64,000 nt of DNA from Chitinivibrionales bacterium (GCA_038247415.1 JBBRUX010000004.1:32001-96000); one strand, 5' to 3'; counted from the first letter of the stretch, positions 1 through 45,689 are shown. A program made the numbers and translations. Notes: generated by a model not told the origin, from the sequence alone.

Positions 1-714
1 GCCAAGAGACCGGTAGCGCTTCCCTTTGCCCTCATCATAATAGAGCGACACCATAGGGATTTTTTCTTGTTCTATATATTCCCAAATAGCAAGCTCTGTC
101 CAATCGAGCAGCGGATGCACTCGAACGTGAGTTCCCGGTGCAAAATCTGTCTTGTAATAATTCCAGACTTCGGGAGGTTGATCCCCCACGTTCCATTCGT
201 TTTGACGATCTCGCGGGGAAAAATAACGCTCCTTAGAACGACTCCCTTCTTCATCGGCACGGGCTCCAACGATAACGCCCGTATACGGTTCTTTATTCGT
301 ATCAAGCACATATTTTTTGTGCGCATGATCCATACGATAGCGCGGCCAATCACCCGAAAGGGTATGCTTGAGAGCTTCACTTTTAAGAGCTTTACAGCAG
401 CTGAGCCGATCGATATTTTTATCGGGGAATGTCTGCTTATCGGCGATTGCTTTGGCATTTTCTCCATATACCATATTTAGGTTCCACTCCAGAGCCAGAT
501 CGTCTCGATAGGTAATCATTTTTGGAATTTTAAAATGAGTATCAATATGCACAAGAGGGAATGGCACATGCCCAAAAAAGGCTTTACGAGCCAACCAGAG
601 CAATACAGTGCTATCTTTTCCGATAGACCAGAGCATGCAGAGACTTTTAAACTCCCGATACGCTTCTCTTAAAATAAATACGCTTTTTGCTTCCAATACC
701 CCAAGTGATTCCAT
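1..714 (-). CDS. cysD: sulfate adenylyltransferase subunit 2 (3' end runs off the window; absent from the ORF track)
   Basis: My translation from ATG at 714: [19 protein letters not shown]...[11 protein letters not shown] (PP-loop)...HIDT...[19 protein letters not shown]...[11 protein letters not shown]...[12 protein letters not shown]...RYRSLG, all CysD motifs. Lies directly downstream of cysH. Confidence 0.95.
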
Positions 715-723
715 ACGATATCC

Positions 724-1464
724 TTACTGTATGCTATGAGTTTTGTTTGGTCTGTTATGCAAACCACATTCTTTATGTTCAGGCAATTCCCACCACCAAC
801 GCCCGAGCCTAACATCATCCATTGGCCCACTTGCACGAGTGCACGGTTGGCAACCGATACTACGAAAACCTTTTTCATACAACTTAGACATTGGTAACAC
901 ATGGTTTTTGGTATAGTCCATTGTTTGCGATTCTGTCCAATTACACAGAGGACTTATGCGATACACAGAATGAGCTTCATCCCATTCCACACAAGAAAGC
1001 CCGCTGCGTGTCTGCGACTGCTCTGCGCGTAGGCCTACAATCCAGGCATCGACGGTGCTTACTATTTTTTGTAAAGGTCGAGTTTTTCGAACAGCGCAGC
1101 AGGCCTTTCGAGCATCTATACTCCTATAAAAAGAATTGGGTCCTGGAGTCGACACAAGGTTTGCCACCTCTTTCGCATCAGGGACACACACTTCGTAAGC
1201 AATATTCCACAAATCAACCGATTGTTGCCATACGTCATAGGTTTCTTCAAAATGCCGACCGGTATCAAGCGTGAAAATGCGAGCCTTTGGATTTATGCCT
1301 ATAAGCATTTGCGTTAGAACCTGGTCTTCGGCGCTAAAGCTTGATGCAAGAGCGATCCTGCCTACTGTAAAGGTAGAAAGTGCCCACGCAACAACCGCTT
1401 CTGCAGTCAGGTTTACCGTCTGCCTCTGATACTCTTCCAAAAATGTTTGTGAGAATTCCGCCAC
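724..1464 (-). CDS. cysH: adenylyl-sulfate (APS) / phosphoadenylyl-sulfate reductase, [4Fe-4S] type
   Basis: ASSFSAED, LDTG, CC (KACCAVRK) plus CxxC (SIGCQPCT) Fe-S ligands, GRWWWE and C-terminal ECGLH; GTG start. Confidence 0.93.
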   Translation of the reverse strand: MAEFSQTFLEEYQRQTVNLTAEAVVAWALSTFTVGRIALASSFSAEDQVLTQMLIGINPKARIFTLDTGRHFEETYDVWQQSVDLWNIAYEVCVPDAKEVANLVSTPGPNSFYRSIDARKACCAVRKTRPLQKIVSTVDAWIVGLRAEQSQTRSGLSCVEWDEAHSVYRISPLCNWTESQTMDYTKNHVLPMSKLYEKGFRSIGCQPCTRASGPMDDVRLGRWWWELPEHKECGLHNRPNKTHSIQ

Positions 1465-33805: not shown

Positions 33806-35671
33806 CTATTTCTTTTTCTCCATTGTCATGGATGGATTATACAAATTAACCTGATTGCGACCATGTTCTTTACTATAATAGAGAGCGGTATCGGCCATAT
33901 TTACAAGAAATTGCTTATCATCGATATGAGGGGGGCATGTAGCACACCCAAGACTTACTGTTACCGTAAGTACTGTATCACCATGCATAATGCGCCGTTC
34001 TTCAACCGTTTTTCGAATTCGCTCTGCAGTTGCCATAGCGCCTTCCACAGAACTTTCTGCTAAAATCACCACAAATTCCTCGCCACCATAGCGTGCCGGC
34101 AAATCGCTTGACCGAATAGCAGAGCGAATACACACGGCGATCTCTCGCAAAACAAGATCTCCTATTGTATGACCATAGGTATCATTAAATTTCTTGAAAT
34201 GATCGATATCCATAAGCAACAATGAAAAATGGCGTGAATACCGACGCGCGCGATCCATTTCATTTGTCAACTGGTCCTGAAAGTAGCGATGATTGGGTAG
34301 TCCCGTTAAACCATCGGTTGTTGCAAGTTTCTCCATTTTCTGATACAACAGCGCGCGCGCGATAGCAACAGACGCATTGCCCATAAGCGTTGAAAGTAAT
34401 GTTTCGATTTCTCCGCTAAACATCTCTTGCCGATCCCCCTCAATAGAAAGGAGACCAAGACACCGCATGTCATTATCCAGAATAGGTATAATAATAAGCG
34501 AAACCAGTGTCGTATCTTCTGCTTCACCGGAATCAAATCGGTAATATTGCTGAGTCCCTGCTCCATAGTTTCCAATGTTAACAATTTTTTTCTTCTGATA
34601 GGAAAATCCATAGAGACCACCGCCAAGCGTAAATTCGGCTCCCTGTTCAACGTCGGTTTTAGTCCCGCTAACTCTCACAATACGACCCATATTTGTTTGC
34701 GGATTAAGTGATATGGTCATAATGCGGTTATGCGAAACGAGCGATCCTATTGTCGCAAAGAGAATATTAAACACATCGTCGGTGGTAAGCGCTGTGGTGA
34801 GCTGTTGGGAGTTTTCGTAAAACACCTTAAATTGCCGTGCAGTCCGTTGCTGATATATTCTCATGCGCGCATTAATTATAAGCGCTGCAGCAAGACCTGA
34901 GAATCGCCGCATTATATCTTTATGGGTATCAGTAAAGGCGCGTTTATTGTTGGAATCTATAACCAGAGCCCCGAGAAGTTCCTTTTCATCTGATACGACT
35001 GGTACAGCCAAAACCGAATATACTACTTCACCTTCGCGATAATACATGACTTTTTCGCCATACATCTGGATATCACCCGAAAGAAAAGAACGCCGTTCCG
35101 TGGCAATACGCCCAACAATACCGTCTCCACCAGCAATTTCGATCCCCTCAATTACTTTGGTACTTTTAGTATGAACTGCATTAAGGATAAATGAATTAGT
35201 GGTAGGATTATAGATAAACCCGAGTGCCGAATAAGCATCAAAATTTTTGCGCATGAAAAAAACAATTGACGCGAGCAATTCTTCTACACCCTGCGGACGA
35301 CTGTTTAATTCATCGAGCAGCAATTGTACTGTTTGACCAGATACAGCTGCATGTTGAACCACGGAAACTTCTGTTTCGGGATTTTGTGCCTTGTTCTGCT
35401 TAGGTTGACTTGAGGCATTTTGAGTTGAAATATAAGCAACCTTAGAAACGGGCTTTTTTTCGAAAAAGCCTATCATATTCCGCATCAATGCGACTAAAAA
35501 AAAGAGCGCACAGGCTCCCGAAGCAATTAAAAGCCAAGGGTATTCCGAAGGTGAGTATTCTGGCGGAATGGGAAGTTTCCCTATAAAATGAAGAAGGACT
35601 GCACATCCAATAAGGACAAGTACCGTAATTTCTATTGCAACAAACGGATTTGTATTCTTTTTTTTCTGCAC
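33806..35671 (-). CDS. membrane-anchored diguanylate cyclase (2 TM, GAF, GAF, GGDEF)
   Basis: TDGLTGL.N.R, DIDHFK.FNDTYGH..GD, RSSD I-site five residues before an intact GGEEF. Confidence 0.92.
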   Translation of the reverse strand: MQKKKNTNPFVAIEITVLVLIGCAVLLHFIGKLPIPPEYSPSEYPWLLIASGACALFFLVALMRNMIGFFEKKPVSKVAYISTQNASSQPKQNKAQNPETEVSVVQHAAVSGQTVQLLLDELNSRPQGVEELLASIVFFMRKNFDAYSALGFIYNPTTNSFILNAVHTKSTKVIEGIEIAGGDGIVGRIATERRSFLSGDIQMYGEKVMYYREGEVVYSVLAVPVVSDEKELLGALVIDSNNKRAFTDTHKDIMRRFSGLAAALIINARMRIYQQRTARQFKVFYENSQQLTTALTTDDVFNILFATIGSLVSHNRIMTISLNPQTNMGRIVRVSGTKTDVEQGAEFTLGGGLYGFSYQKKKIVNIGNYGAGTQQYYRFDSGEAEDTTLVSLIIIPILDNDMRCLGLLSIEGDRQEMFSGEIETLLSTLMGNASVAIARALLYQKMEKLATTDGLTGLPNHRYFQDQLTNEMDRARRYSRHFSLLLMDIDHFKKFNDTYGHTIGDLVLREIAVCIRSAIRSSDLPARYGGEEFVVILAESSVEGAMATAERIRKTVEERRIMHGDTVLTVTVSLGCATCPPHIDDKQFLVNMADTALYYSKEHGRNQVNLYNPSMTMEKKK

Positions 35672-35821: not shown

Positions 35822-36943
35822 ATGAAAAAGACAAAAAAAACAATCTCATTGCGATACCGACTCTTTGGCATGCTTCCCCCCAAAGCCAAACAAGCCATCC
35901 TTCGCAGCATGGCTCTTCGGTCGCTATCGCCTGAGCCCATTTCCTTTCCGTATTCTTGGAATAGAGGCCGATCAGTTCTCATACTCATGCCGCCAGATCT
36001 ACTCCCGACGTTGCACAGTATTCCAATCATAACAAGCATTGCTAAAACAAGCGATGCTACTACTATAGATATCATGTGTTGCGAAGCGGCCAAACCTTTT
36101 TTGAGCCCTCTGGGAAATGTTCGCACCATATACGATTACGATCCCGCTGACTTTGCACTTGGATCCTTGAGCTATACAGCACTCCGTCGAAGCATTAAAG
36201 AAACATTTTATGATGTGTGCTTGATTCTTTCACAAGATGCAAACAATGAACATCCGCTCATCTGCGCTCAAAGCGGGGCAGCATTGCGGGTTGGTTTCTA
36301 CGGATCCAGCGCATATCCTTTTGTCAATTTTTCGGCAAAAGCACTCACAGCGCATGCCACGCCCACGCTTAAAAACACCTTTCTGCTCTCGATACTTGGC
36401 ATAAAACTCCATCATGAAACTCGCTTTATTGTTGATAAAAAATCACACGATGATATTGATCATGCCTGCATAGAGGCAGGAATTAATAAAAAAGAGCCGC
36501 TCTTAGGTATCGATTTCAATTATCTGGAAACGATTATAGGACATGATTCTGCAGTCAAGCTCGCAACATACCTTGCCTTGGGATGGAGCGGAACTACCTA
36601 CCTCTATCTGAACGATTCTGCTGATCACGAAAGGCATGCCACAACGCTTGGCGGGCACTCATTTAGTGTATTTGCATCATTGCCGGTTTCTCGGATGGCT
36701 TCCCTTATCGATAGAAGTGCTCTCATTGTTTCCGGAGCTACCCCGTTTTTTATTACTGCGAATCTCCTTGGGAAAAAGGCAATCGGCCTCTTTATCGACG
36801 CCTCAAATTCAAGCCACGAGGCTGACACACCCACGCAAGTATCCATTTTCCTCGATCAGGTCGGCGTTAGCAATCTGCCAGATGCAATCAGAAAAGCACT
36901 CAAGCAGATCGGGCTCTCGCCACTTCGTGAATCTGATAGTTGA
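35822..36943 (+). CDS. glycosyltransferase family 9 (heptosyltransferase-like), divergent
   Basis: GT9-like layout: VLIL...DLL..L.SIP.I, YDVCL.L, SGA.LRVGF, ASLIDRSALIVSG.T....A..LG...IGLF. Confidence 0.5.
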   Translation: MKKTKKTISLRYRLFGMLPPKAKQAILRSMALRSLSPEPISFPYSWNRGRSVLILMPPDLLPTLHSIPIITSIAKTSDATTIDIMCCEAAKPFLSPLGNVRTIYDYDPADFALGSLSYTALRRSIKETFYDVCLILSQDANNEHPLICAQSGAALRVGFYGSSAYPFVNFSAKALTAHATPTLKNTFLLSILGIKLHHETRFIVDKKSHDDIDHACIEAGINKKEPLLGIDFNYLETIIGHDSAVKLATYLALGWSGTTYLYLNDSADHERHATTLGGHSFSVFASLPVSRMASLIDRSALIVSGATPFFITANLLGKKAIGLFIDASNSSHEADTPTQVSIFLDQVGVSNLPDAIRKALKQIGLSPLRESDS

Positions 36944-36994
36944 CCATATGTCCTTAATAATTATATAATTTAAGACAGTATAAAGCATTGGTCT

Positions 36995-37034
36995 GTTATG
37001 AACGCATAACGCATTTTATACACAGTGCGTTATG
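36995..37034. promoter_or_regulatory. nested inverted repeats upstream of the L,D-transpeptidase operon
   Basis: GTTATG-N4-CATAAC (36995-37010) overlapping CATAACGCA-N12-TGCGTTATG (37005-37034). Confidence 0.35.
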
Positions 37035-37147
37035 TGGGTGGTTTGTTATTCCATATAGGGAAATTGCATCATTCAAACACCATCCTGATACACCGCAATA
37101 TTGATTTTGCCAAAAAGGATATTTTTGTGAGGAGCAGGTTTTTTCGC

Positions 37148-38425
37148 ATGTTCGATATACCAAATCATTTTTTTATGTCATACTTGAAATCTTTCGAATT
37201 TCAATTGAGGACTTGGAACAATCAACGTGCCATCCGCGCCGCGTACACTAAACATGGTATTGGCAAACTTCTGCTGAGATTTCCAAAAAAGATACTCTTC
37301 ATTATTGGCGTATGTTGCCTTGGAGCCCTGCTTATTGCCAGCGCCCCATTCCTTTTCAAAACAAGCTCAGCGCTCATTCATTTAGTATTCAAATCAATGC
37401 ATCAACAAATGCCTGCGCAAGGATTTTCGCTGAAAGCATTAGGTATAGGATCCCAAGCGTTTCATCGAGTGGAACCCACCATTGAAACAACGCCTCTTGA
37501 TAATCAAGCAGCAATGATCCCGCAAAAAATGCTACAACCAGCAGCCGACCAATTACAAGCCGGTACTGGAGAGCTTGACATTTGCCTCTATGCCAATAAA
37601 GCAACAAAAACACTTACAGTTTTTAAAGCAATCAATTCCAAATGGACTATTGCCCAAACTTTTTTTATTGGTACCGGGGCTAATGGTGGCCGGAAAATGA
37701 GTGCCGGTGATAAAAAAACGCCTCTAGGCCTTTACTATATTGTCGAGCGTAAAGATCAACAATCTCTGGCTAAAATCTATGGCCCACTTGCCTATGTTCT
37801 CAGCTATCCTAATGCAGATGATCGCGCAAACAAGAGAACCGGTGAAGGAATCTGGATTCATGGAACAACGGATGATACCGTTCCATTCCAAACAAAAGGC
37901 TGCATAGAACTACGCAATAGCAATTTAAAAAAACTTGCTGCCATTGTGGGAAATGGCAAAGGAATTCCTATTGTCATTGTAGACACCACCGATACGAGTA
38001 CCTATCTACTCCCGCCGTATACAACACTTTTAGCAGGCCACAATGCGATACTTGCTACCAAAGCTGCTTCGGGTACCGAATTTGATTCACTCATAACGCA
38101 ATGGGCTCAAAGCTGGATGTCAAGGGATATTACCGAGTATGAGAGGTGGTATAACCACGATTCATTTAATGGTGGAGGCCTGTCGTGGGCCCAATGGCGA
38201 GCAAAAAAAGAATCTACCTTTGCAGCGGCAAAATCGATAACAGTCTCGTGTTCTAAAGTAGTCATTTCTCCCGTATCCGACTCACTCGTTTCGGTACGTT
38301 TTATTCAGCATTATACGTCTACCACGCTGCAAAGCGATAATGGAAAACAGCTTTATTTTACCCGTACACCGCAAGGTTGGAAAATTTACCGCGAATCGGT
38401 ATTTCCCAAAGAGGAGTTGCTATGA
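37148..38425 (+). CDS. L,D-transpeptidase/carboxypeptidase (YkuD) with C-terminal NTF2-like domain (Csd6-like)
   Basis: TM anchor; K...GD.KTP.G.Y, YPN..D....TG.GIWIHG...TKGCI catalytic His/Cys; C-terminal W...W...D...Y...Y..V.F.Q.Y.S....D.G.K.L......GWKI..E. Start uncertain (37025-37175). Confidence 0.85.
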   Translation: MFDIPNHFFMSYLKSFEFQLRTWNNQRAIRAAYTKHGIGKLLLRFPKKILFIIGVCCLGALLIASAPFLFKTSSALIHLVFKSMHQQMPAQGFSLKALGIGSQAFHRVEPTIETTPLDNQAAMIPQKMLQPAADQLQAGTGELDICLYANKATKTLTVFKAINSKWTIAQTFFIGTGANGGRKMSAGDKKTPLGLYYIVERKDQQSLAKIYGPLAYVLSYPNADDRANKRTGEGIWIHGTTDDTVPFQTKGCIELRNSNLKKLAAIVGNGKGIPIVIVDTTDTSTYLLPPYTTLLAGHNAILATKAASGTEFDSLITQWAQSWMSRDITEYERWYNHDSFNGGGLSWAQWRAKKESTFAAAKSITVSCSKVVISPVSDSLVSVRFIQHYTSTTLQSDNGKQLYFTRTPQGWKIYRESVFPKEELL

Positions 38426-40971
38426 TGTTTTCATCGTCCAAGAAAAAAGACCCCCTGCTGCTCGCAGAAGAAATCGAAACTAACCTGAATCAGATTCAGG
38501 AGCTTCTTGCGCGCGTTGTACAGGAAAAAGAAGCCTTTGAGAAAACGATGCAGCACCATCAAGGCGAAGTCCAACAAATCGAAGCACTCAAGCAAGAAAT
38601 TGCCGATCTCAAAGCTCACAACATTCGACCATCACAACATGCTTTAGGTGCCAATGCCGACATCGATGCGAGAGTATCATCGCTGGAGGCATCTCTTAAT
38701 GCACTTGCAGCTAAAGATACGCACCTTACCACCATGATTAACAAAGTAGAGGACGTTCTTAATCGCCTCGAAAAAGATGGCGCCAAAGGGCTCATTGCCG
38801 ATGCTGTAAAATCGCTTGATCAGATCGAAACCCGTCACCATAAGGTGTTTACAACACTCGAACGGCTCGAAAAAAAGGAGGCCTCTATTGCATCCTCTGT
38901 GGCACAGCTTTCGAGCACCTTATCGGATACGCAAGGCAACTTTGATACGGTCTCCCAAAAGCTGGCAAGTTTCGACGACGAAATGAATCAATTCAGATTG
39001 CTCAAAGATAAAATCGATAATCTCAATACACTTTCCGAATATGTTAAGAGCAAAATCAAGGCACTCGAAAACCAACGGGTTGTTGTTGAAAAAGCCAACG
39101 AAGAAGCAGGAAAACTGAACACCTTGACATGGAAAATAGATGCCGACCTTCGACATCTGGAAGATAAGGTTGTAAAGCTTGAGAAAACCGAGCGTAATAT
39201 CGAGCGTATTGGCACCATGCTCGAACAAAGCCAGATATCAGTTAACGAAATACGACAATTCCAGAAAATCATGGAACAAGCAGGAACAAAAATCGAAGAA
39301 ATTCGCATTCATGACGAAGAACTTTCCAAAAAGCTCAGTGAGTTTACTGCACAAAATAAACATATTAACGAAGTCAATGAACGCGCCCACGAAGTTCTTA
39401 CCGTTTCTAAAAATGCAGAAGCATTGCTTAATACTATTACCAAACACAAACAGATGCTCGAGAATAACCATGCTCAGGTTTTGGAATATGAAAAAAATCT
39501 CGAAAAAACCCGCATCAAAATCGACGAGCTCAACCAGGAATGGGCGATTATCGATACCATCAATCAGCGCATTGGATCGATTTCACAACGGCTGGATCAA
39601 ACCGACTCCCGAATCGACACCGTTACCAAAAGTCAAAAAACGATCGAAGCATTTGAAAAGAAACTTGCCGACATTCGGGATCTCATGGACGATATTACAG
39701 CGCGCGAAAAGGTTGTGCTTGCGCAGCGAGATAATGTTTCGCTGGCAGAAACAAGCATGGCATCATTTGTTGAAAGCGTTGCGCATCTGGAACGTAAGAC
39801 TTCTGAATTATCACTTCACGAACAGCAGGTTCTTGCAGTTGCGCGCAAAATAGATGAACTCACCGTGCTTGCAGCAAAAACATCTGAGCAGATTGCGCAG
39901 ACCGAAGAAAAAGCGCGTATTATTGTGGCTGTCGAAAAACAAATCGGCAACCTTGGTTCCATGGTCGACCAAATAGACGAACGGATCGATGCTCAATTGC
40001 AGCGTAAAGCAATGATTGAAACTACCGAAAAACGACTGGATCAGCTCAACTATCTTCTTGGCGATATCAATATGAAAATCCAGAGCCTGCAACGCGATCA
40101 AAAAATTGTTGAAGATGTCAGCCAACAAATATCTTCCATTTCAGTGCAATCACTGGAAGCCAAAGAAATGATGAAGCGCTTGGCCGAAGAAAAGCAAGCT
40201 CTTTTACACGAAGAGAATCGTATTCTTGAAATGCGCAAAAACCTCGAATCACTGCAAACAGAGTCAACCAGTATCCTTAATGGTTTTAGTGCCACGATTT
40301 CCGAAAGCAAAGAAACATTCTCTATTCATACCGCCCAGTTTAAATCGGTACTAGATGAGAATAACCAACAGATTAAAACCATCGAAAAATATCGAGGGGA
40401 TATTGCCAAAGCGGCGGACCAACTTAAGGATGTCGAAAAGGCACTCGATGCATTGCGTGCCGAAATGGAACTCATTGGTAGACGGGCAAATAAAATAGAA
40501 GCTATCGATACCCGTATTGAAAATGTGAATACGATTGTAGCAGATATGGAAATTAGAATAGAATCTATCGATAAAGATCGGGAAATGGTTAATACCACCC
40601 AGAAGAAAATCGATACGCTTAATTCAGTTGCAGACTCGGTTGATCGCCAAATCGAAACTATTAACATCCGTGGCCAGGAGATCGAATCGGTAGGTCGACA
40701 GGTCGACACGCTCGCCACAGTTATGGATGATGTTGAATCCCGTATGCGTTCACTGGCGCGAGAAAAACAGGTCATCAAAGATGGCGAAAACCGAATCAAT
40801 ACACTCTCGTTGCTCATGGAAGATATTAAGGCACAAATTGGAAATCTTAGTTCCGAAAGCCAACGAATTCAGGATGCAATCGAAAAGACATCGGAACTTC
40901 GATTCCTTCTTGGTGAAGTTGAATCAAAACTCAACCTCTTTAGGCTCGAAAAAGAAAAGCTGAGTAAATGA
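38422..40971 (+). CDS. cytoplasmic long coiled-coil protein with 31-residue periodicity, 849 aa
   Basis: GAGGAG RBS; ATGA overlaps with both neighbours; E/K/Q/I/L-rich, essentially Pro-free after the N-terminal part; no TM segment, signal peptide or Walker motif. Confidence 0.85.
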   Translation: MMFSSSKKKDPLLLAEEIETNLNQIQELLARVVQEKEAFEKTMQHHQGEVQQIEALKQEIADLKAHNIRPSQHALGANADIDARVSSLEASLNALAAKDTHLTTMINKVEDVLNRLEKDGAKGLIADAVKSLDQIETRHHKVFTTLERLEKKEASIASSVAQLSSTLSDTQGNFDTVSQKLASFDDEMNQFRLLKDKIDNLNTLSEYVKSKIKALENQRVVVEKANEEAGKLNTLTWKIDADLRHLEDKVVKLEKTERNIERIGTMLEQSQISVNEIRQFQKIMEQAGTKIEEIRIHDEELSKKLSEFTAQNKHINEVNERAHEVLTVSKNAEALLNTITKHKQMLENNHAQVLEYEKNLEKTRIKIDELNQEWAIIDTINQRIGSISQRLDQTDSRIDTVTKSQKTIEAFEKKLADIRDLMDDITAREKVVLAQRDNVSLAETSMASFVESVAHLERKTSELSLHEQQVLAVARKIDELTVLAAKTSEQIAQTEEKARIIVAVEKQIGNLGSMVDQIDERIDAQLQRKAMIETTEKRLDQLNYLLGDINMKIQSLQRDQKIVEDVSQQISSISVQSLEAKEMMKRLAEEKQALLHEENRILEMRKNLESLQTESTSILNGFSATISESKETFSIHTAQFKSVLDENNQQIKTIEKYRGDIAKAADQLKDVEKALDALRAEMELIGRRANKIEAIDTRIENVNTIVADMEIRIESIDKDREMVNTTQKKIDTLNSVADSVDRQIETINIRGQEIESVGRQVDTLATVMDDVESRMRSLAREKQVIKDGENRINTLSLLMEDIKAQIGNLSSESQRIQDAIEKTSELRFLLGEVESKLNLFRLEKEKLSK
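38911..40968 (+). repeat. 31-aa (93-nt) degenerate tandem repeat, about 21 units in two blocks
   Basis: Examples: EKQIGNLGSMVDQIDERIDAQLQRKAMIETT / EKRLDQLNYLLGDINMKIQSLQRDQKIVEDV / QKKIDTLNSVADSVDRQIETINIRGQEIESV / GRQVDTLATVMDDVESRMRSLAREKQVIKDG. Hydrophobic residues at positions 4,7,11,14,18,21,28,31. Confidence 0.8.
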
Positions 40972-43124
40972 CCGACCTGCTGACAGATTGCTTTACAGAC
41001 CAGATTCGCGAGATTAACCCTCGTCTTAATCTTGATCTCATCGAAAAGGCGTATAAGCTTTCGCTGTCAGCTCACAAAGATCAAAAGAGAAAATCGGGCG
41101 AGCCGTATATCCGCCACCCTATGGCAGTTGCAATTATCCTTGCCGAACAAAAGCTCGATTCAGTTACCATTGCCGCAGCCCTGCTTCACGACGTTCTCGA
41201 AGATACGCCCATAACACTTGCACGCCTTATCGAGGATTTTGGCGAAGAAATTGCCCAGCTCGTTGACGGCGTGACTAAAATTCGTACATTCGAAATCAAA
41301 AACCGCGAAGAACGACAAGCCGAAACATACCGAAAAATGCTCCTGTCGATGGCCAAAGATATCCGGGTCATTATCATAAAATTTGCCGATCGCCTTCACA
41401 ATTTAAGAACCCTCGATGCGCTCTCGCCGGAACGTATTGCCGCAATAGCAAGCGAAACACTCGATATTTATGCCCCTCTCGCCCACCGTCTTGGTATGGC
41501 AAAAATCAAATGGGAACTCGAGGACCTTGCTTTTAAATACCTTTACCCCGAAGATTATAAAAATGTTGTTGCCAAAGTAGTAGGAAGTCGAAATGAGCGC
41601 GAAAAACTTATCGACTCCTTTACTATTCCGCTTCGCCAAAAAGTTGCATCAGAAAATATTACCGCAACAATTATTGGACGGCCAAAGCATTTTTACAGCA
41701 TTTATCGCAAAATGGCCAATGCAACAAAGAGCTTCGAAGAAATTTACGACTTGCTGGCCATTCGCGTTATTACAAGCGATCTGCGCGCGTGCTATGCGAT
41801 TCTTGGCCTTGTGCATTCACTCTGGAAACCAATTGCCGATCGATTTAAAGATTATATCAGTATGCCAAAATCAAATGGATACCAATCGTTACATACAACC
41901 GTTGTAGGCGATAGCGGTAACATTGTTGAAATACAAATAAGAACGTGGGAAATGAACCAAGTTGCCGAAGACGGCATCGCAGCGCATTGGCTTTACAAAG
42001 AAGGCGAAAACAGTGGTTTTTCTACCGACGACCACCAACTTGCATGGCTTAAAAACCTGATCGAATGGCAAAAAGACCTCACCGATTCTGCAGAATTTGT
42101 TGAATTTTTTAAAATCGACCTTTACCATGCGGAGATATTTGTTTTTACCCCTAAGGGCGACCTTATTTCGCTTCCCAAGGGTGCCACGGTGTTAGATTTT
42201 GCCTTCGCTGTGCATACCGACCTTGGAATTCATTGTGTTGGAGCAAAAGTAGATGGCAAGATCGAGCCACTCAACACCCTCCTGCGCAGCGGCTTTACCG
42301 TTGACATTTTGCATAGCAATTCAAAGACTCCTTCAATCGACTGGCTTACCGATGTTCACACACCAAAAGGCAGATCTGCTTTACGGCGATGGTTTAAAAA
42401 TACCGGAAAGCGTGAATCGATTGATCTTGGCAAGAAGATTTTGCGGTCTCATTTCAACAAGCTGCACTTAGCCTCTCCTTTTTCGGAATTTGTGCCAACG
42501 CTCCTCTCGTCTCTGGGGATAAATCATCTCGAACGGCTGTATGAGCTTATTGGCAATGGAGAATTACCCGTTGCGCGCGTAATGCGGTATCTCAACGAAC
42601 ATCGCAAGCATCAATCGATGCCATCGCGCGTGGTTTCTAAAATTGTCAATTCTATTCGACCTAAAAGCCCTGGAATTATTGTTGGAGATACCGATAATGT
42701 CATGGTTCGATTCGCGAATTGCTGCAATCCGATTCCTGGCGATCCCATAACCGGATTTGTTACACGCGGCCGTGGCATTGTGGTCCATCACGCCGATTGC
42801 CCTAATTTAGCCTATATCTCGCGTGATGAAGAACGGCTTATGAGCGTATCATGGGATGACCATCACGATCGTCAATATTTTGTTTCTTTGGAAATTCTGG
42901 CAACCGATAGGTCTGGACTTTTGCACGATGTTACGGGAGTATTTAGTAATTTTGGAGCAGATGTAATAGATGGGTCACTTACTACTGTGCGGGATCAGGT
43001 TCGCAATATTTTTAAGCTCAAAATACAAAATAAGAATCAACTTAAGCAGATTATAGATCGGCTACAAAAAATCAAAGGCATCGAAAAAGTTACCCGCACC
43101 CGTGACGCCGGATACGGGAAATAA
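40968..43124 (+). CDS. rel: bifunctional (p)ppGpp synthetase/hydrolase (long RSH)
   Basis: RKSGEPY..HP, LLHDVLED hydrolase, ADRLHN, GRPK..YSI, RFKDY, YQSLHT, EIQIRT; TGS (FVFTPKG), CC.P.PGD, ACT domain. Confidence 0.96.
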   Translation: MTDLLTDCFTDQIREINPRLNLDLIEKAYKLSLSAHKDQKRKSGEPYIRHPMAVAIILAEQKLDSVTIAAALLHDVLEDTPITLARLIEDFGEEIAQLVDGVTKIRTFEIKNREERQAETYRKMLLSMAKDIRVIIIKFADRLHNLRTLDALSPERIAAIASETLDIYAPLAHRLGMAKIKWELEDLAFKYLYPEDYKNVVAKVVGSRNEREKLIDSFTIPLRQKVASENITATIIGRPKHFYSIYRKMANATKSFEEIYDLLAIRVITSDLRACYAILGLVHSLWKPIADRFKDYISMPKSNGYQSLHTTVVGDSGNIVEIQIRTWEMNQVAEDGIAAHWLYKEGENSGFSTDDHQLAWLKNLIEWQKDLTDSAEFVEFFKIDLYHAEIFVFTPKGDLISLPKGATVLDFAFAVHTDLGIHCVGAKVDGKIEPLNTLLRSGFTVDILHSNSKTPSIDWLTDVHTPKGRSALRRWFKNTGKRESIDLGKKILRSHFNKLHLASPFSEFVPTLLSSLGINHLERLYELIGNGELPVARVMRYLNEHRKHQSMPSRVVSKIVNSIRPKSPGIIVGDTDNVMVRFANCCNPIPGDPITGFVTRGRGIVVHHADCPNLAYISRDEERLMSVSWDDHHDRQYFVSLEILATDRSGLLHDVTGVFSNFGADVIDGSLTTVRDQVRNIFKLKIQNKNQLKQIIDRLQKIKGIEKVTRTRDAGYGK

Positions 43125-43173: not shown

Positions 43174-43725
43174 CTACTCCGTAAAGGGGGTTACAAAATC
43201 TTTAAAAAAGCTGAGCTTGCTATCTTTTTCAGATAGAATTGGTTGCACAACCGGCCAGACAATTCCTAAATCGGGATCATTCCATCGGAGCCCACTATCA
43301 CACTCTGCCGAATAGAGAGCATCTGTTTTATACACAACTTCTGTTCGCTCTGTGAGTGTACAAAAGCTATGAGCAAAACCAGCAGGAACAAATACCATTT
43401 TAAAATTTTCCGATGTTAATTCAAACCCTTCCCACATCCCATAGGTTGGAGAATTTCTTCGCAGATCCACAATAACATCGTATATTGCCCCTTGTATAAC
43501 CCGAATAAGCTTTGCTTGTGCGTGCGGCGGCTTTTGGAAATGAAGCCCTCGTACAACTCCAATCCCAAGCGAAAGAGAATGATTGTCCTGCACAAAACAC
43601 GCAGAAATTCCCTCTGCTGCAAACGCCCGGAGGGAATACGACTCAAGAAAAAATCCGCGATTATCACGAAAGACCCGCGGTTCTAGAATGCATGCATCTT
43701 TAAGCTTAGAATCTATTCGCTCCAT
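43174..43725 (-). CDS. rmlC: dTDP-4-dehydrorhamnose 3,5-epimerase
   Basis: F.D.RGFF.ES, VQDNHS.S..GVVRGLHFQ, DLR..SPTYG.W, P.GFAH, WNDP, LSEKD. Confidence 0.96.
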   Translation of the reverse strand: MERIDSKLKDACILEPRVFRDNRGFFLESYSLRAFAAEGISACFVQDNHSLSLGIGVVRGLHFQKPPHAQAKLIRVIQGAIYDVIVDLRRNSPTYGMWEGFELTSENFKMVFVPAGFAHSFCTLTERTEVVYKTDALYSAECDSGLRWNDPDLGIVWPVVQPILSEKDSKLSFFKDFVTPFTE

Positions 43726-43737
43726 AAAAAGTTCCTT

Positions 43738-44604
43738 TTATTCAGAAGCTAACCGTATAAGGTATTGTCCATAGGTATTTTTTTTCATTGGTTCTGCAAG
43801 TGCAAGAAGTTCTTCTTTTGATATATAGCCTAAACGAAAGGAAATTTCTTCTGGGCAGCTTACTTTAAGTCCTTGACGTTCCTGGATAGTCTCAACAAAT
43901 ACTGCAGCCTGCAACATCGATTCACATGTTCCGGTGTCGAGCCAGGCAATACCCCGCCCTAAAAGCGTCACGCTTAATTCGTTGTTACGCAAATAAATTG
44001 CGTTGAGATCGGTAATTTCTAGCTCTCCCCGTGGAGAGGGCGCCAAATTCGCAGCATACTCAACAACGCGATTATCATAAAAATAAAGGCCTGTTACAGC
44101 ATAGTTAGACTTTGGTTCTGCAGGCTTTTCTTCCAAGCGGATAGCCTTGCCACTTTTGTCAAGTTCCACAACGCCGTATCGTTGTGGATCATGTACCCAA
44201 TATCCAAACACTGTAGCGCCCGTTTTAATTTCGGCCGCGCGTACAAGGTCTTTAACCAGATCATGTCCCCAGAAAATATTATCGCCAAGAACAAGTGCTA
44301 CAGAATCTGCGCCAACAAACTCTTTACCAATAATAAATGCCTGAGCAAGCCCTTCGGGTTTTGGCTGTATTGCAAAGGTAAACGAAAGCCCCCATTGAGA
44401 GCCATCAGAAAGAAGGCGTTTAAATGCTGCAGAATCTTCTGGTGTTGTAATAATAAGCATTTCTCGAATACCCGCGAGCATCAAAATCGAGAGGGGATAA
44501 TAAATCATGGGCTTATCGTACACGGGAACCAATTGTTTGCTCACCGCTTTTGTCATTGGGTAGAGCCGGGTTCCGGAACCACCTGCCAAAATAATACCTT
44601 TCAT
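43738..44604 (-). CDS. rmlA: glucose-1-phosphate thymidylyltransferase
   Basis: [53 protein letters not shown]. Confidence 0.97.
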
Positions 44605-44753
44605 ACCGATAGATTCCTCTCTGAGTAGCGGATACTAAAAACATCTCCTAGAATGCAGTTATTAGTATAAAATAGTTTTGCGCCTACATTCTCATTACAT
44701 TCCTTCGCCCTTTTTAGAAATTCGGCTTAGGCGCAATGAACTATTTTTAATTC

Positions 44754-45689
44754 ATGGAACAGGACGCTCTGCACACCAATCCGTTTCCCGGTGAAATCGG
44801 CACAGCGATATACGGTTTTATCAACTACCTTCAAAAACAACGAATGTATTCTCCTCATACTATTGTTGCTTATACCCACGATCTAACTAACTTTTGCACG
44901 TTTGGTACAAAGAACACCTCCTCCACAGCCCTTGCCCCAATCATGACGCGAGGTATTCTGCGCGCCTTTACCTACTCCCTCAATGAAGAAGGCCTTAAAC
45001 CCAGAACAATCTCTCGATCCGTTGCAGCGCTCAAATCTTTTTCCAAATACTGTGTTCGCAACAAGCTCCTCGCGGCCGATGTCGGCAAAACCATAGTTTC
45101 TCCAAAACTTGACAAACCACTGCCAGTATTTCTCAGCGAGCAGCAAACAAATGGCCTTAACCACACGGCTTGCGCCGATCCTGAATCGCTGCGCAATAAC
45201 ACCATAGTAGAACTCTTTTATGGCACAGGCATGCGGCTTTCGGAACTGCATGCGCTTAATGCAAATACCATCGACTGCAACCGCAATCTGGTTCGAGTGC
45301 GTGGCAAAGGAAACAAAGAACGGATTATCCCGGTAACACAAACTGCCATCGACCTCCTTACGACATATCTTGCGCATTGCCGAGGAACTGGCGCTCCAGC
45401 AGATGCCCTGTTTATAAACAAACAGGGCCAAAGAATTTCAAAACGCCAGATAGAGCGAATTGTAGCGTCATCTCTTTCCAGTGTAAGCTCAAACAAAAAA
45501 CGCAGCCCGCACGTGTTACGACACACCTTTGCCACCCATTTGCTCGATCACGGCGCCGATATACGTGCCGTCAAAGAGCTTTTAGGGCACGCGTCGCTTG
45601 CAACAACACAAATTTATACTCATATTTCAAAAGAGCACCTTAAAAAAACCTACGAACGCGCTCATCCGCGTGCAGAATTATTGCCATAA
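44754..45689 (+). CDS. xerC: tyrosine recombinase XerC
   Basis: S.HT..AY..DL, K.LP.FL, ELFYGTGMRLSEL, GKGNKER, SPHVLRHTFATHLL..GADIRAVKELLGHASLATTQIYTH...Y..AHPRA. Confidence 0.88.
   Translation: MEQDALHTNPFPGEIGTAIYGFINYLQKQRMYSPHTIVAYTHDLTNFCTFGTKNTSSTALAPIMTRGILRAFTYSLNEEGLKPRTISRSVAALKSFSKYCVRNKLLAADVGKTIVSPKLDKPLPVFLSEQQTNGLNHTACADPESLRNNTIVELFYGTGMRLSELHALNANTIDCNRNLVRVRGKGNKERIIPVTQTAIDLLTTYLAHCRGTGAPADALFINKQGQRISKRQIERIVASSLSSVSSNKKRSPHVLRHTFATHLLDHGADIRAVKELLGHASLATTQIYTHISKEHLKKTYERAHPRAELLP

Follow-up and report, generated by a model that had tools for sequence, protein, structure and literature searches.

The 64,000-nucleotide stretch of DNA analyzed here (the window; Chitinivibrionales bacterium, GCA_038247415.1 JBBRUX010000004.1:32001-96000) carries a gene for an 849-aa coiled-coil protein (P0001) made up of about 27–28 copies of a 31-residue unit, each consisting of four heptads and then a polar junction in which one core position is skipped. 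Directly upstream lies a gene (P0004) for an enzyme that, judged by its domains and relatives, is of the Csd6/Pgp2/Bd1075 type, with a predicted L,D-carboxypeptidase or transpeptidase activity. Enzyme and coiled coil form a two-gene cassette in the Fibrobacterota outside one large non-flagellated family. The coiled-coil protein may be a soluble, cytoplasmic sub-membrane scaffold that, in Fibrobacterota, is coupled to the membrane-tethered enzyme and thereby places wall trimming for curved or helical cell shape, a reading to which we give about an even chance. The conserved pairing with a shape-type L,D-carboxypeptidase, which was absent from the first-pass annotation of the window, was the most informative evidence.

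The coiled-coil gene (Table 1) starts at an ATG that shares bases with the TGA of the enzyme gene (ATGA; ctATGAtg), and its own TGA overlaps the ATG of a downstream RelA/SpoT gene. The start agreed with the relatives, whose alignments begin at residue 1, and the open reading frame (ORF) proposed in the first pass was real, its 14 units beginning where they had been placed. Autocorrelation of binary hydrophobicity over the 849 residues had top lags of 31 (0.416), 62 (0.343), and 93 (0.340). The Fourier spectrum of hydrophobicity had one dominant maximum at 3.45 residues with a power of 10.19, which is 4.7 times the 99th percentile of 200 shuffles (maximum power mean 1.39, 99th percentile 2.17), so that the check suggested in the first-pass annotation gave both peaks far above the shuffles. 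Core positions within the unit were 4, 7, 10/11, 14, 18, 21, (25), 28, and 31, and their spacing of 3,4,3,4,3,4,3,3,4 confirmed the proposed four heptads plus a three-residue stammer (31/9 = 3.44).

The period had also been called strict, and this held for two runs of units and not for the protein as a whole. The first run, of 14 consecutive units in one phase, was evident when the sequence was laid out in rows of 31 and was followed by an irregular stretch over which the phase shifts by 2. The short break that had been described was therefore present, with about six units after it where about seven had been counted, each with eight a/d core positions and then a six-residue polar junction. Residues 1–163 were less regular, yet lag 31 was the top lag for residues 1–300 (0.29). 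The chain contained 2 Pro, both within the first 70 residues, and 0 Cys. With a maximum Kyte-Doolittle 19-residue mean of 0.79 and no Pfam domain above threshold, the protein had no transmembrane (TM) segment, ATPase head, or hinge, as the first pass had it.

Among Fibrobacterota, 44 of 45 loci had the enzyme gene immediately ahead of the coiled-coil gene; the remaining locus begins at a contig edge. The two genes overlapped by 4 nt (ATGA) in 30 of 35 loci and by 7 nt in three; a 16-nt gap separated them in one locus, and no overlap was found in the last. All six loci drawn from more distantly related Fibrobacterota families, with coiled coils of only 24–31% identity, showed the pairing too. 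The coiled coil was found in 65 of the 151 genomes of the phylum and in none of the 55 genomes of one family (0/55). It was single-copy per genome, one genome having two identical matches on separate contigs. The enzyme was detected at E ≤1e-53, on the same contig as the coiled-coil gene, in 5/5 coiled-coil-positive genomes, while strong matches were found in 0/10 coiled-coil-negative genomes (91–100% complete), two of which gave only 20-bit YkuD matches. In two negative genomes from a genus with positive members, the locus consisted of the GGDEF gene, a gene for a 373-aa protein, and RelA, with just the enzyme and coiled-coil genes missing. Because these negative loci lack precisely those two genes, enzyme and coiled coil together constitute the inherited unit.

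The longest ORF for the enzyme began with GTG at 37025, and comparison with relatives placed the likely true start at the ATG at 37148. From this start, the predicted protein comprised a cytoplasmic N-terminal tail, a single TM helix, a YkuD catalytic domain, and a Csd6-type NTF2-like domain. Hydrophobic residues in the N-terminal segment (M..........LK.LEF...TWK..REI..AY) followed a heptad pattern over about four heptads, and both this helix and the TM segment were conserved in the enzyme relatives examined. The catalytic His in WIHG and Cys in KGCIEL aligned to those of Bd1075 and Csd6, and the alignment to Bd1075 extended through residue 461. The best solved relatives were Bd1075 (7O21, E 5.5e-28), Csd6 (4XZZ, 1e-20), and Pgp2 (6XJ6, 6.5e-20), which are described as L,D-carboxypeptidases generating vibrioid or helical shape (PMC8938487; PMC4599014; PMC8038945).

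On the evidence of profile comparisons, the coiled-coil protein belongs to an unnamed multi-phylum family and is not an orphan. The family profile (A1), built from an alignment of 38 Fibrobacterota sequences and searched against 1.84 billion cluster representatives, matched 1521 proteins at E ≤1e-3, 309 at ≤1e-10, and 79 at ≤1e-30. It replaced an earlier word-index protein search, in which coiled-coil words swamped the candidates and only 2 distant matches were obtained. Record titles placed the relatives in Chitinivibrionales/Chitinispirillales, in Vicinamibacterales and other Acidobacteriota (several copies per genome), in Rubrivivax, Ideonella, and Burkholderiaceae metagenome-assembled genomes (MAGs), and in Ignavibacteria and Zixiibacteriota. 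Of 55 ORFs taken from the loci of relatives, 54 had 31 as their top lag and one had it second, behind 62; some genomes are represented twice among these loci. Among the profile matches listed, it was the top lag in 99 of 124 proteins of ≥300 aa, and Fourier peaks fell at 3.445–3.485, mostly 3.455–3.46. Profile-profile comparison by hhalign, with the Fibrobacterota alignment on one side and 20 aligned sequences from other phyla on the other, gave a probability of 100 and an E of 3e-50, with 856 collinear columns from end to end, at a profile-profile identity of 17% between the Fibrobacterota and Acidobacteriota subfamilies.

Full-length family members were about 865–926 aa, with 866–874 aa in the window's order (41 of 55 ORF rows) and 896–917 aa in Acidobacteriota. 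Variation in steps of 31 residues, for which the first pass had suggested looking, was not borne out: lengths were conserved, clustering in these two ranges, and the two groups aligned collinearly. Shorter forms were without roughly 57, 80–117, or 180–195 N-terminal residues, and relatives of termite-gut type were without the first ~57. The window protein was 21–23 residues shorter than most relatives through deletions of 3, 7, and 13 residues after residues 8, 53, and 72 (38422-38700, residues 1–90). One relative's copy (G028:C68:2346-4910) had an in-frame TAG, which could reflect a pseudogene or an assembly error. Parts of the block best conserved across phyla (Table 1) were 34–47% identical to three Acidobacteriota loci. 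The near-invariant stretch EKRLDQLNYLLGDINMKIQSL, within which only residues 546 and 555 varied among the 38 Fibrobacterota sequences, was poorly conserved in the Acidobacteriota subfamily.

Names attached to relatives in public sources were only ‘hypothetical protein’ and ‘chromosome segregation ATPase’, the latter an automatic label on five JGI/IMG relatives. The family, of about 1,500 library clusters, is unnamed and lacks a Pfam model, and the automatic labels it carries are misleading. Literature searches turned up no description of the family, nor of a stammer period of 31 residues, in keeping with its being undescribed. Bifidobacteriaceae, Acidimicrobiia, and Dehalococcoidia labels on a few loci looked like mis-binned contigs and were not counted toward the range. 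As a lead only, the ESM Atlas held look-alike clusters in Gemmatimonadota, Nitrospinota, Acidobacteriota, and Eiseniibacteriota that carried sub-threshold BLOC1_2 labels. A search of sequencing runs listed no RNA dataset; the DNA datasets were sediment, terrestrial, and other metagenomes.

Neither the enzyme nor RelA was a neighbor of the Acidobacteriota copies in the loci examined. Neighbors there were SLT-LysM lytic transglycosylases (three loci), a TPR-SLH protein with a CDP-alcohol phosphatidyltransferase (PgsA; two loci), and transposases. One Acidobacteriota clade (L099, L101, L103) had the ~585-aa SLT + LysM lytic transglycosylase following on the opposite strand, so that a peptidoglycan enzyme is associated with the family here for a second time and independently. 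Acidobacteriota genomes had up to four paralogues (in one Vicinamibacterales MAG), and several copies were flanked by transposase or integrase genes, which suggests mobility or recent duplication. A divergent YggS-DivIVA pair, the tail of a division/cell-wall cluster, adjoined the gene in one Ignavibacteria and one Zixiibacteriota MAG (L150, L151). Outside Fibrobacterota, a cell-wall theme recurs among the neighbors, albeit anecdotally.

AlphaFold2 (AF2), run on the monomer with the 38-sequence alignment, gave a mean predicted local distance difference test (pLDDT) score of 69.1 and a predicted template modeling (pTM) score of 0.22. Helix was assigned by DSSP to nearly the entire chain, which agrees with the first-pass annotation in predicting an almost wholly helical coiled-coil protein. 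Breaks in the helix were predicted at residues 66–75, 118–124, 310–318, and 531–539, the last just before EKRLDQLNYLLGDINMKIQSL, with a low-confidence patch at 724–737; the segments so delimited were 187, 214, and 186 residues long. The monomer model of an Acidobacteriota relative (P0036; pLDDT 60, pTM 0.27) had more helix breaks. When these were mapped via hhalign, two lay near those of the window protein, at 582–606 versus an expected 573–581 and at 754–791 versus an expected 762–775. The extended rod of ~125 nm that had been proposed was not what these monomers gave, their helices being interrupted so as to leave 5 to 11 segments; at their low confidence, neither model decides between rod and bundle.

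At the family level, heptad position e was 36–38% acidic and g 24–40% basic, a composition that weakly favors parallel over two-stranded antiparallel pairing. Residue preferences were I > L > V at position a and L > I > V at position d, from which no particular strand number follows. For standard coiled-coil geometry, 3.63 residues per helical turn are given by Hartmann et al. (2016; PMC4786415). Combined with 31/9, this value yields a calculated left-handed supercoil of about 5.3 degrees per residue, or about 166 degrees per unit, nearly a half turn (130–182 for helix periods of 3.60–3.65), and a calculated supercoil pitch of about 10 nm, versus 14.5 nm. The predicted complex of the full coiled coil with the 48-residue enzyme tail, both entered as alignments, had an interaction prediction score from aligned errors (ipSAE) of 0.00 in two runs without controls and counts neither way.

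If the coiled coil is a scaffold for the enzyme, it would self-associate beneath the membrane, and the cytoplasmic helix of the enzyme, whose four or so heptads are roughly one unit long, would dock on it. The rod would then set the position along the cell at which peptidoglycan stem peptides are trimmed by the periplasmic domain, and such localized trimming would produce or maintain a curved or helical shape. Several points weigh against this reading. The family is present in other phyla without an L,D-carboxypeptidase neighbor, and its core function is therefore wider than partnering the enzyme. The AF2 monomer models are of low confidence, with only two helix breaks coinciding between subfamilies, and explicit g-to-e′ charge pairs were not enriched (ratios of 1.6 and 1.1 versus 1.8–2.5 in controls). 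Co-loss is weaker evidence than it looks, because adjacent genes can go in a single deletion, and the genomes compared for it are kin. The residue two positions after the catalytic Cys (Cys+2) is Glu, which sets the enzyme apart from Csd6 and Pgp2 (Ala) and Bd1075 (Val), most transpeptidases being described as having Arg (PMC8938487); because of this Glu, the activity may be that of either a carboxypeptidase or a transpeptidase. The source organism is an uncultured sediment bacterium, and in this reading self-assembly, docking, and the effect on shape are inferred.

A more specific version of the scaffold reading would make the stammer a tuning device. With about a half turn per 31-residue repeat, a two-stranded rod would turn the same face to the membrane every 4.6 nm and offer ~28 membrane-facing docking sites for the enzyme helix, a straight track that would be copied into one-sided peptidoglycan trimming. 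We consider this version quite improbable; if true, it would explain how a shape enzyme can be targeted to one side of the cell.

Two alternatives keep the coiled coil in the cytoplasm and assign it another role. It could be a general cytoskeletal or envelope scaffold independent of the enzyme, which stiffens the cell beneath the membrane or organizes the division site or pole, the pairing being a matter of operon convenience. The unrelated neighbors in other phyla, the several paralogues per Vicinamibacterales genome, and the proximity of DivIVA/YggS in Ignavibacteria and Zixiibacteriota all point this way, and the cross-phylum block at residues 195–250 suggests a common function without the Fibrobacterota enzyme. 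We nevertheless regard such a scaffold as an unlikely explanation: in Fibrobacterota, ATGA coupling and adjacency persist down to 24–31% identity, both genes are gained or lost together, and the conserved cytoplasmic heptad helix has no other obvious use in a periplasmic enzyme. Because both AF2 monomer models segment the helix at low confidence, a bundle some 30 nm long, in which long helices fold back antiparallel to one another, also has to be weighed; it would serve the enzyme as an adaptor or regulator in the cytoplasm, with a possible tie to the stringent response via RelA/SpoT. The segments of 187, 214, and 186 residues and the two breaks within about 10 residues of breaks in the P0036 model are consistent with a bundle, and RelA/SpoT was the next gene in 27 of 45 close loci (once at a distance of 4.4 kb) and in 5 of the 6 distant loci. 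AF2 monomer models, however, routinely fold coiled-coil chains back, the two pTM scores are low, the remaining breaks differ between the models, and the segregation of acidic e and basic g residues disfavors two-stranded antiparallel pairing, and RelA remains where the cassette is missing. We judge the bundle rather improbable.

Comparison with characterized families bore on two further alternatives. A Pfam scan of the 849-aa protein gave no family at threshold, the best being BLOC1_2 (27.4 bits versus 33.4). The family profile retrieved only weak coiled-coil look-alikes from a PDB sequence search (best, a methyl-accepting chemotaxis protein, 2CH7, E 3e-5), and Foldseek of the AF2 model against the PDB gave nothing at E ≤0.001. 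The layout of intermediate filaments, a segmented heptad rod with head and tail domains, was not found, the 31-residue pattern filling nearly the whole chain. EzrA was rejected, with no Pfam match at E ≤0.01 and no TM segment. An SMC/Rad50/SbcC-like chromosome protein, which the automatic names on the five JGI/IMG relatives and weak NCBIfam matches to SMC/Rad50 coiled-coil regions might suggest, has next to no probability and is refuted at the level of domain content: the protein had no head, hinge, Walker motifs, or Pfam SMC_N. NCBIfam scores for these families were 33–59 bits (45–59 for the matches in question) against cut-offs of 567–1087, for instance 58.6 against 567 for SMC and 54.5 against 700 for Rad50. 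The expectation that the protein would match neither SMC/SbcC nor EzrA was thus upheld.

Very unlikely, in our view, is a flagellum-associated rod related to SpiroCoCo of spirochetes, for example one that places or organizes flagella. The NCBIfam model SpiroCoCo_C (NF047515) scored 136.5 bits, above its cut-off of 125, over profile positions 2–252, but this was a sum of separate 20–36-bit stretches of rod repeats, and the profile also matched in 9 of 14 control genomes. Relatives from other phyla scored 90–153 bits, likewise by summed stretches, and SpiroCoCo_N (NF047514) reached 63.5 bits against a cut-off of 75 in the rod part only. The coiled-coil profile in turn reached a genuine SpiroCoCo protein (P0137, 2690 aa; SpiroCoCo_C 444 bits over positions 5–313) at E 2e-21. 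The two share 7n+3 spacings (LA_3659 family NF047516 being a further SpiroCoCo model), the P0137 rod having lags of 17, 24, 31, and 38. Lag 31 was weak there (0.19–0.27), whereas the spacing is much more regular in the window family, and P0137 differs further in its far longer rod, its N-terminal hydrophobic TM anchor, and its distinct C-terminal end domain (profile positions about 250–313). Neither anchor nor end domain was found in the window protein, and its SpiroCoCo_C score is best read as cross-matching confined to the rod. SpiroCoCo and the 31-residue family have a stammer-rich rod style in common, not an architecture, and possibly a common ancestry. A 280-aa ORF elsewhere in the same genome (G000:C3:27346-27564) matched SpiroCoCo_C positions 248–313 with 23.8 bits and may represent a FipA/SwrB-like end domain carried by a protein of its own.

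A flagellar role would accord with the presence of flagellin in 9/9 cassette-positive versus 2/7 cassette-negative Fibrobacterota genomes tested, and in 0/2 of those tested from the family in which the coiled coil was not found; the window's own genome had seven flagellin matches and one bactofilin. Given few and related genomes, this correlation is suggestive only, and two cassette-negative Fibrobacterota genomes are flagellated. Flagellin was not found in three family-bearing Acidobacteriota genomes (single chromosome records of 3.4–5.4 Mb, completeness unreported), so that a role as a flagellar component is improbable for the family at large.

The scaffold reading draws on resemblances to the known shape enzymes. 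Like Csd6, Pgp2, and Bd1075, the partner enzyme has a YkuD His/Cys domain followed by a Csd6-type NTF2-like domain. Like their hosts, the window's lineage includes curved and spiral cultured species: Chitinispirillum is described as a motile spirillum and Chitinivibrio as a motile vibrio, with Fibrobacter being non-motile rods (PMC4814513). One of the coiled-coil loci came from a Chitinispirillum MAG (L043). The flagellin counts and the 0/55 result also stand, as lifestyle correlates, on the side of the scaffold reading. The known enzymes are described as soluble and periplasmic, Bd1075 with a Sec signal peptide and Csd6/Pgp2 with an N-terminal dimerization domain (PMC8938487), whereas the enzyme here has a conserved, predicted cytoplasmic helix with a TM anchor in the inner membrane and, from the gene overlap, is probably translationally coupled to a cytoplasmic coiled coil.

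Crescentin of Caulobacter and the coiled-coil-rich Ccrp proteins of H. pylori are reported to be cytoplasmic and have been linked to a curved or helical cell shape (PMC10873595; PMC2776988). No sequence relationship between these and the window protein was detected, and the latter differs in its regular stammer every 31 residues. No pairing of crescentin or Ccrp with a gene for an L,D-carboxypeptidase is known. FilP and Scy of Streptomyces are long coiled coils with a 51-residue period and >3.5 residues per turn (stutter or hendecad type); the window protein is likewise a long bacterial coiled coil with a characteristic non-heptad period, but this period lowers the residues per turn to 3.44–3.46 (stammer type). 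In tropomyosin, a sequence repeat is matched to the supercoil, so that equivalent sites recur along one face. The comparison with tropomyosin is an analogy only, implying no homology, and the match of repeat and supercoil in the window protein is calculated.

The other genes of the locus were conserved independently of the cassette. RelA/SpoT and the gene for the 373-aa protein, the latter a conserved upstream neighbor retained in 4/4 cassette-negative genomes tested, were rejected as parts of the module, since both stay where the cassette is absent. The GAF-GAF-GGDEF gene kept its position in most related loci, also in cassette-negative genomes. The promoter match upstream of the enzyme gene is a hint only, with 14 such sites found versus 14.6 expected in shuffles.

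Table 1. Location of the coiled-coil gene, its partner enzyme, and neighboring features in the window. Residues are those of the coiled-coil protein.
Feature	Nucleotides	Residues	Strand	Remarks
GAF-GAF-GGDEF diguanylate cyclase	33806-35671		-	Divergent from the cluster
373-aa protein	35822..36943		+	No Pfam family; weak heptosyltransferase II-like match, E 1.3e-3
Sigma-70-like promoter match, 11 of 12	36940..36969		+	TTGACC-18-TATAAT; upstream of enzyme gene
Csd6/Pgp2/Bd1075-type L,D-carboxypeptidase/transpeptidase (P0004)	37025..38425		+	Assigned from domains and relatives
Predicted cytoplasmic N-terminal tail of enzyme, 48 residues	37148..37291		+	Conserved heptad-patterned helix
Predicted single TM helix of enzyme	37292..37360		+	ILFIIGVCCLGALLIASAPFLF region
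YkuD catalytic domain of enzyme	37592..37972		+	PF03734, 53 bits vs cut-off 23.4
Csd6-type C-terminal NTF2-like domain of enzyme	38087..38395		+	PF24125 Cds6_C, 59.4 bits vs cut-off 27
Coiled-coil gene (P0001)	38422..40971		+	ATG start, stop at 40971, 849 aa
14 consecutive 31-residue units	38911..40212	164-597	+	One phase; rows-of-31 layout
Block best conserved across phyla	39004..39171	195-250	+	LNxLxE-V..K.K.LE.Q...VE.A..E...LN...W..D
Near-invariant stretch	40027..40089	536-556	+	EKRLDQLNYLLGDINMKIQSL; 38 Fibrobacterota sequences
Irregular stretch	40213..40398	598-659	+	31-residue phase shifts by 2
Second run, about six 31-residue units	40399..40959	660-846	+	Phase offset by 2
RelA/SpoT-family (p)ppGpp synthetase/hydrolase	40968..43124		+	Full-length, bifunctional
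dTDP-rhamnose genes rmlC, rmlA; XerC/D-type tyrosine recombinase	43174-45689		- (rmlC, rmlA)	After the cluster; ordinary

The kind of system proposed, in which a coiled-coil protein for shape or scaffolding acts together with peptidoglycan hydrolases, is already known; two features are unusual here, a stammer period sustained along the chain and a link to the enzyme across the membrane. According to Hartmann et al. (2016; PMC4786415), coiled coils that depart from the heptad mostly have periods above 3.5, and the stammer is a strained extreme in the rare direction. With 3.44–3.46 kept up over ~850 residues, this large, ancient family would be a natural test case for sustained over-winding. How a shape enzyme is confined to one side of the cell is presented as an open question in the study of Bd1075 (PMC8938487). 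The combination of an anchored enzyme, a predicted cytoplasmic helix, and an obligatory coiled-coil partner would offer a testable route from a cytoplasmic structure to localized wall editing.

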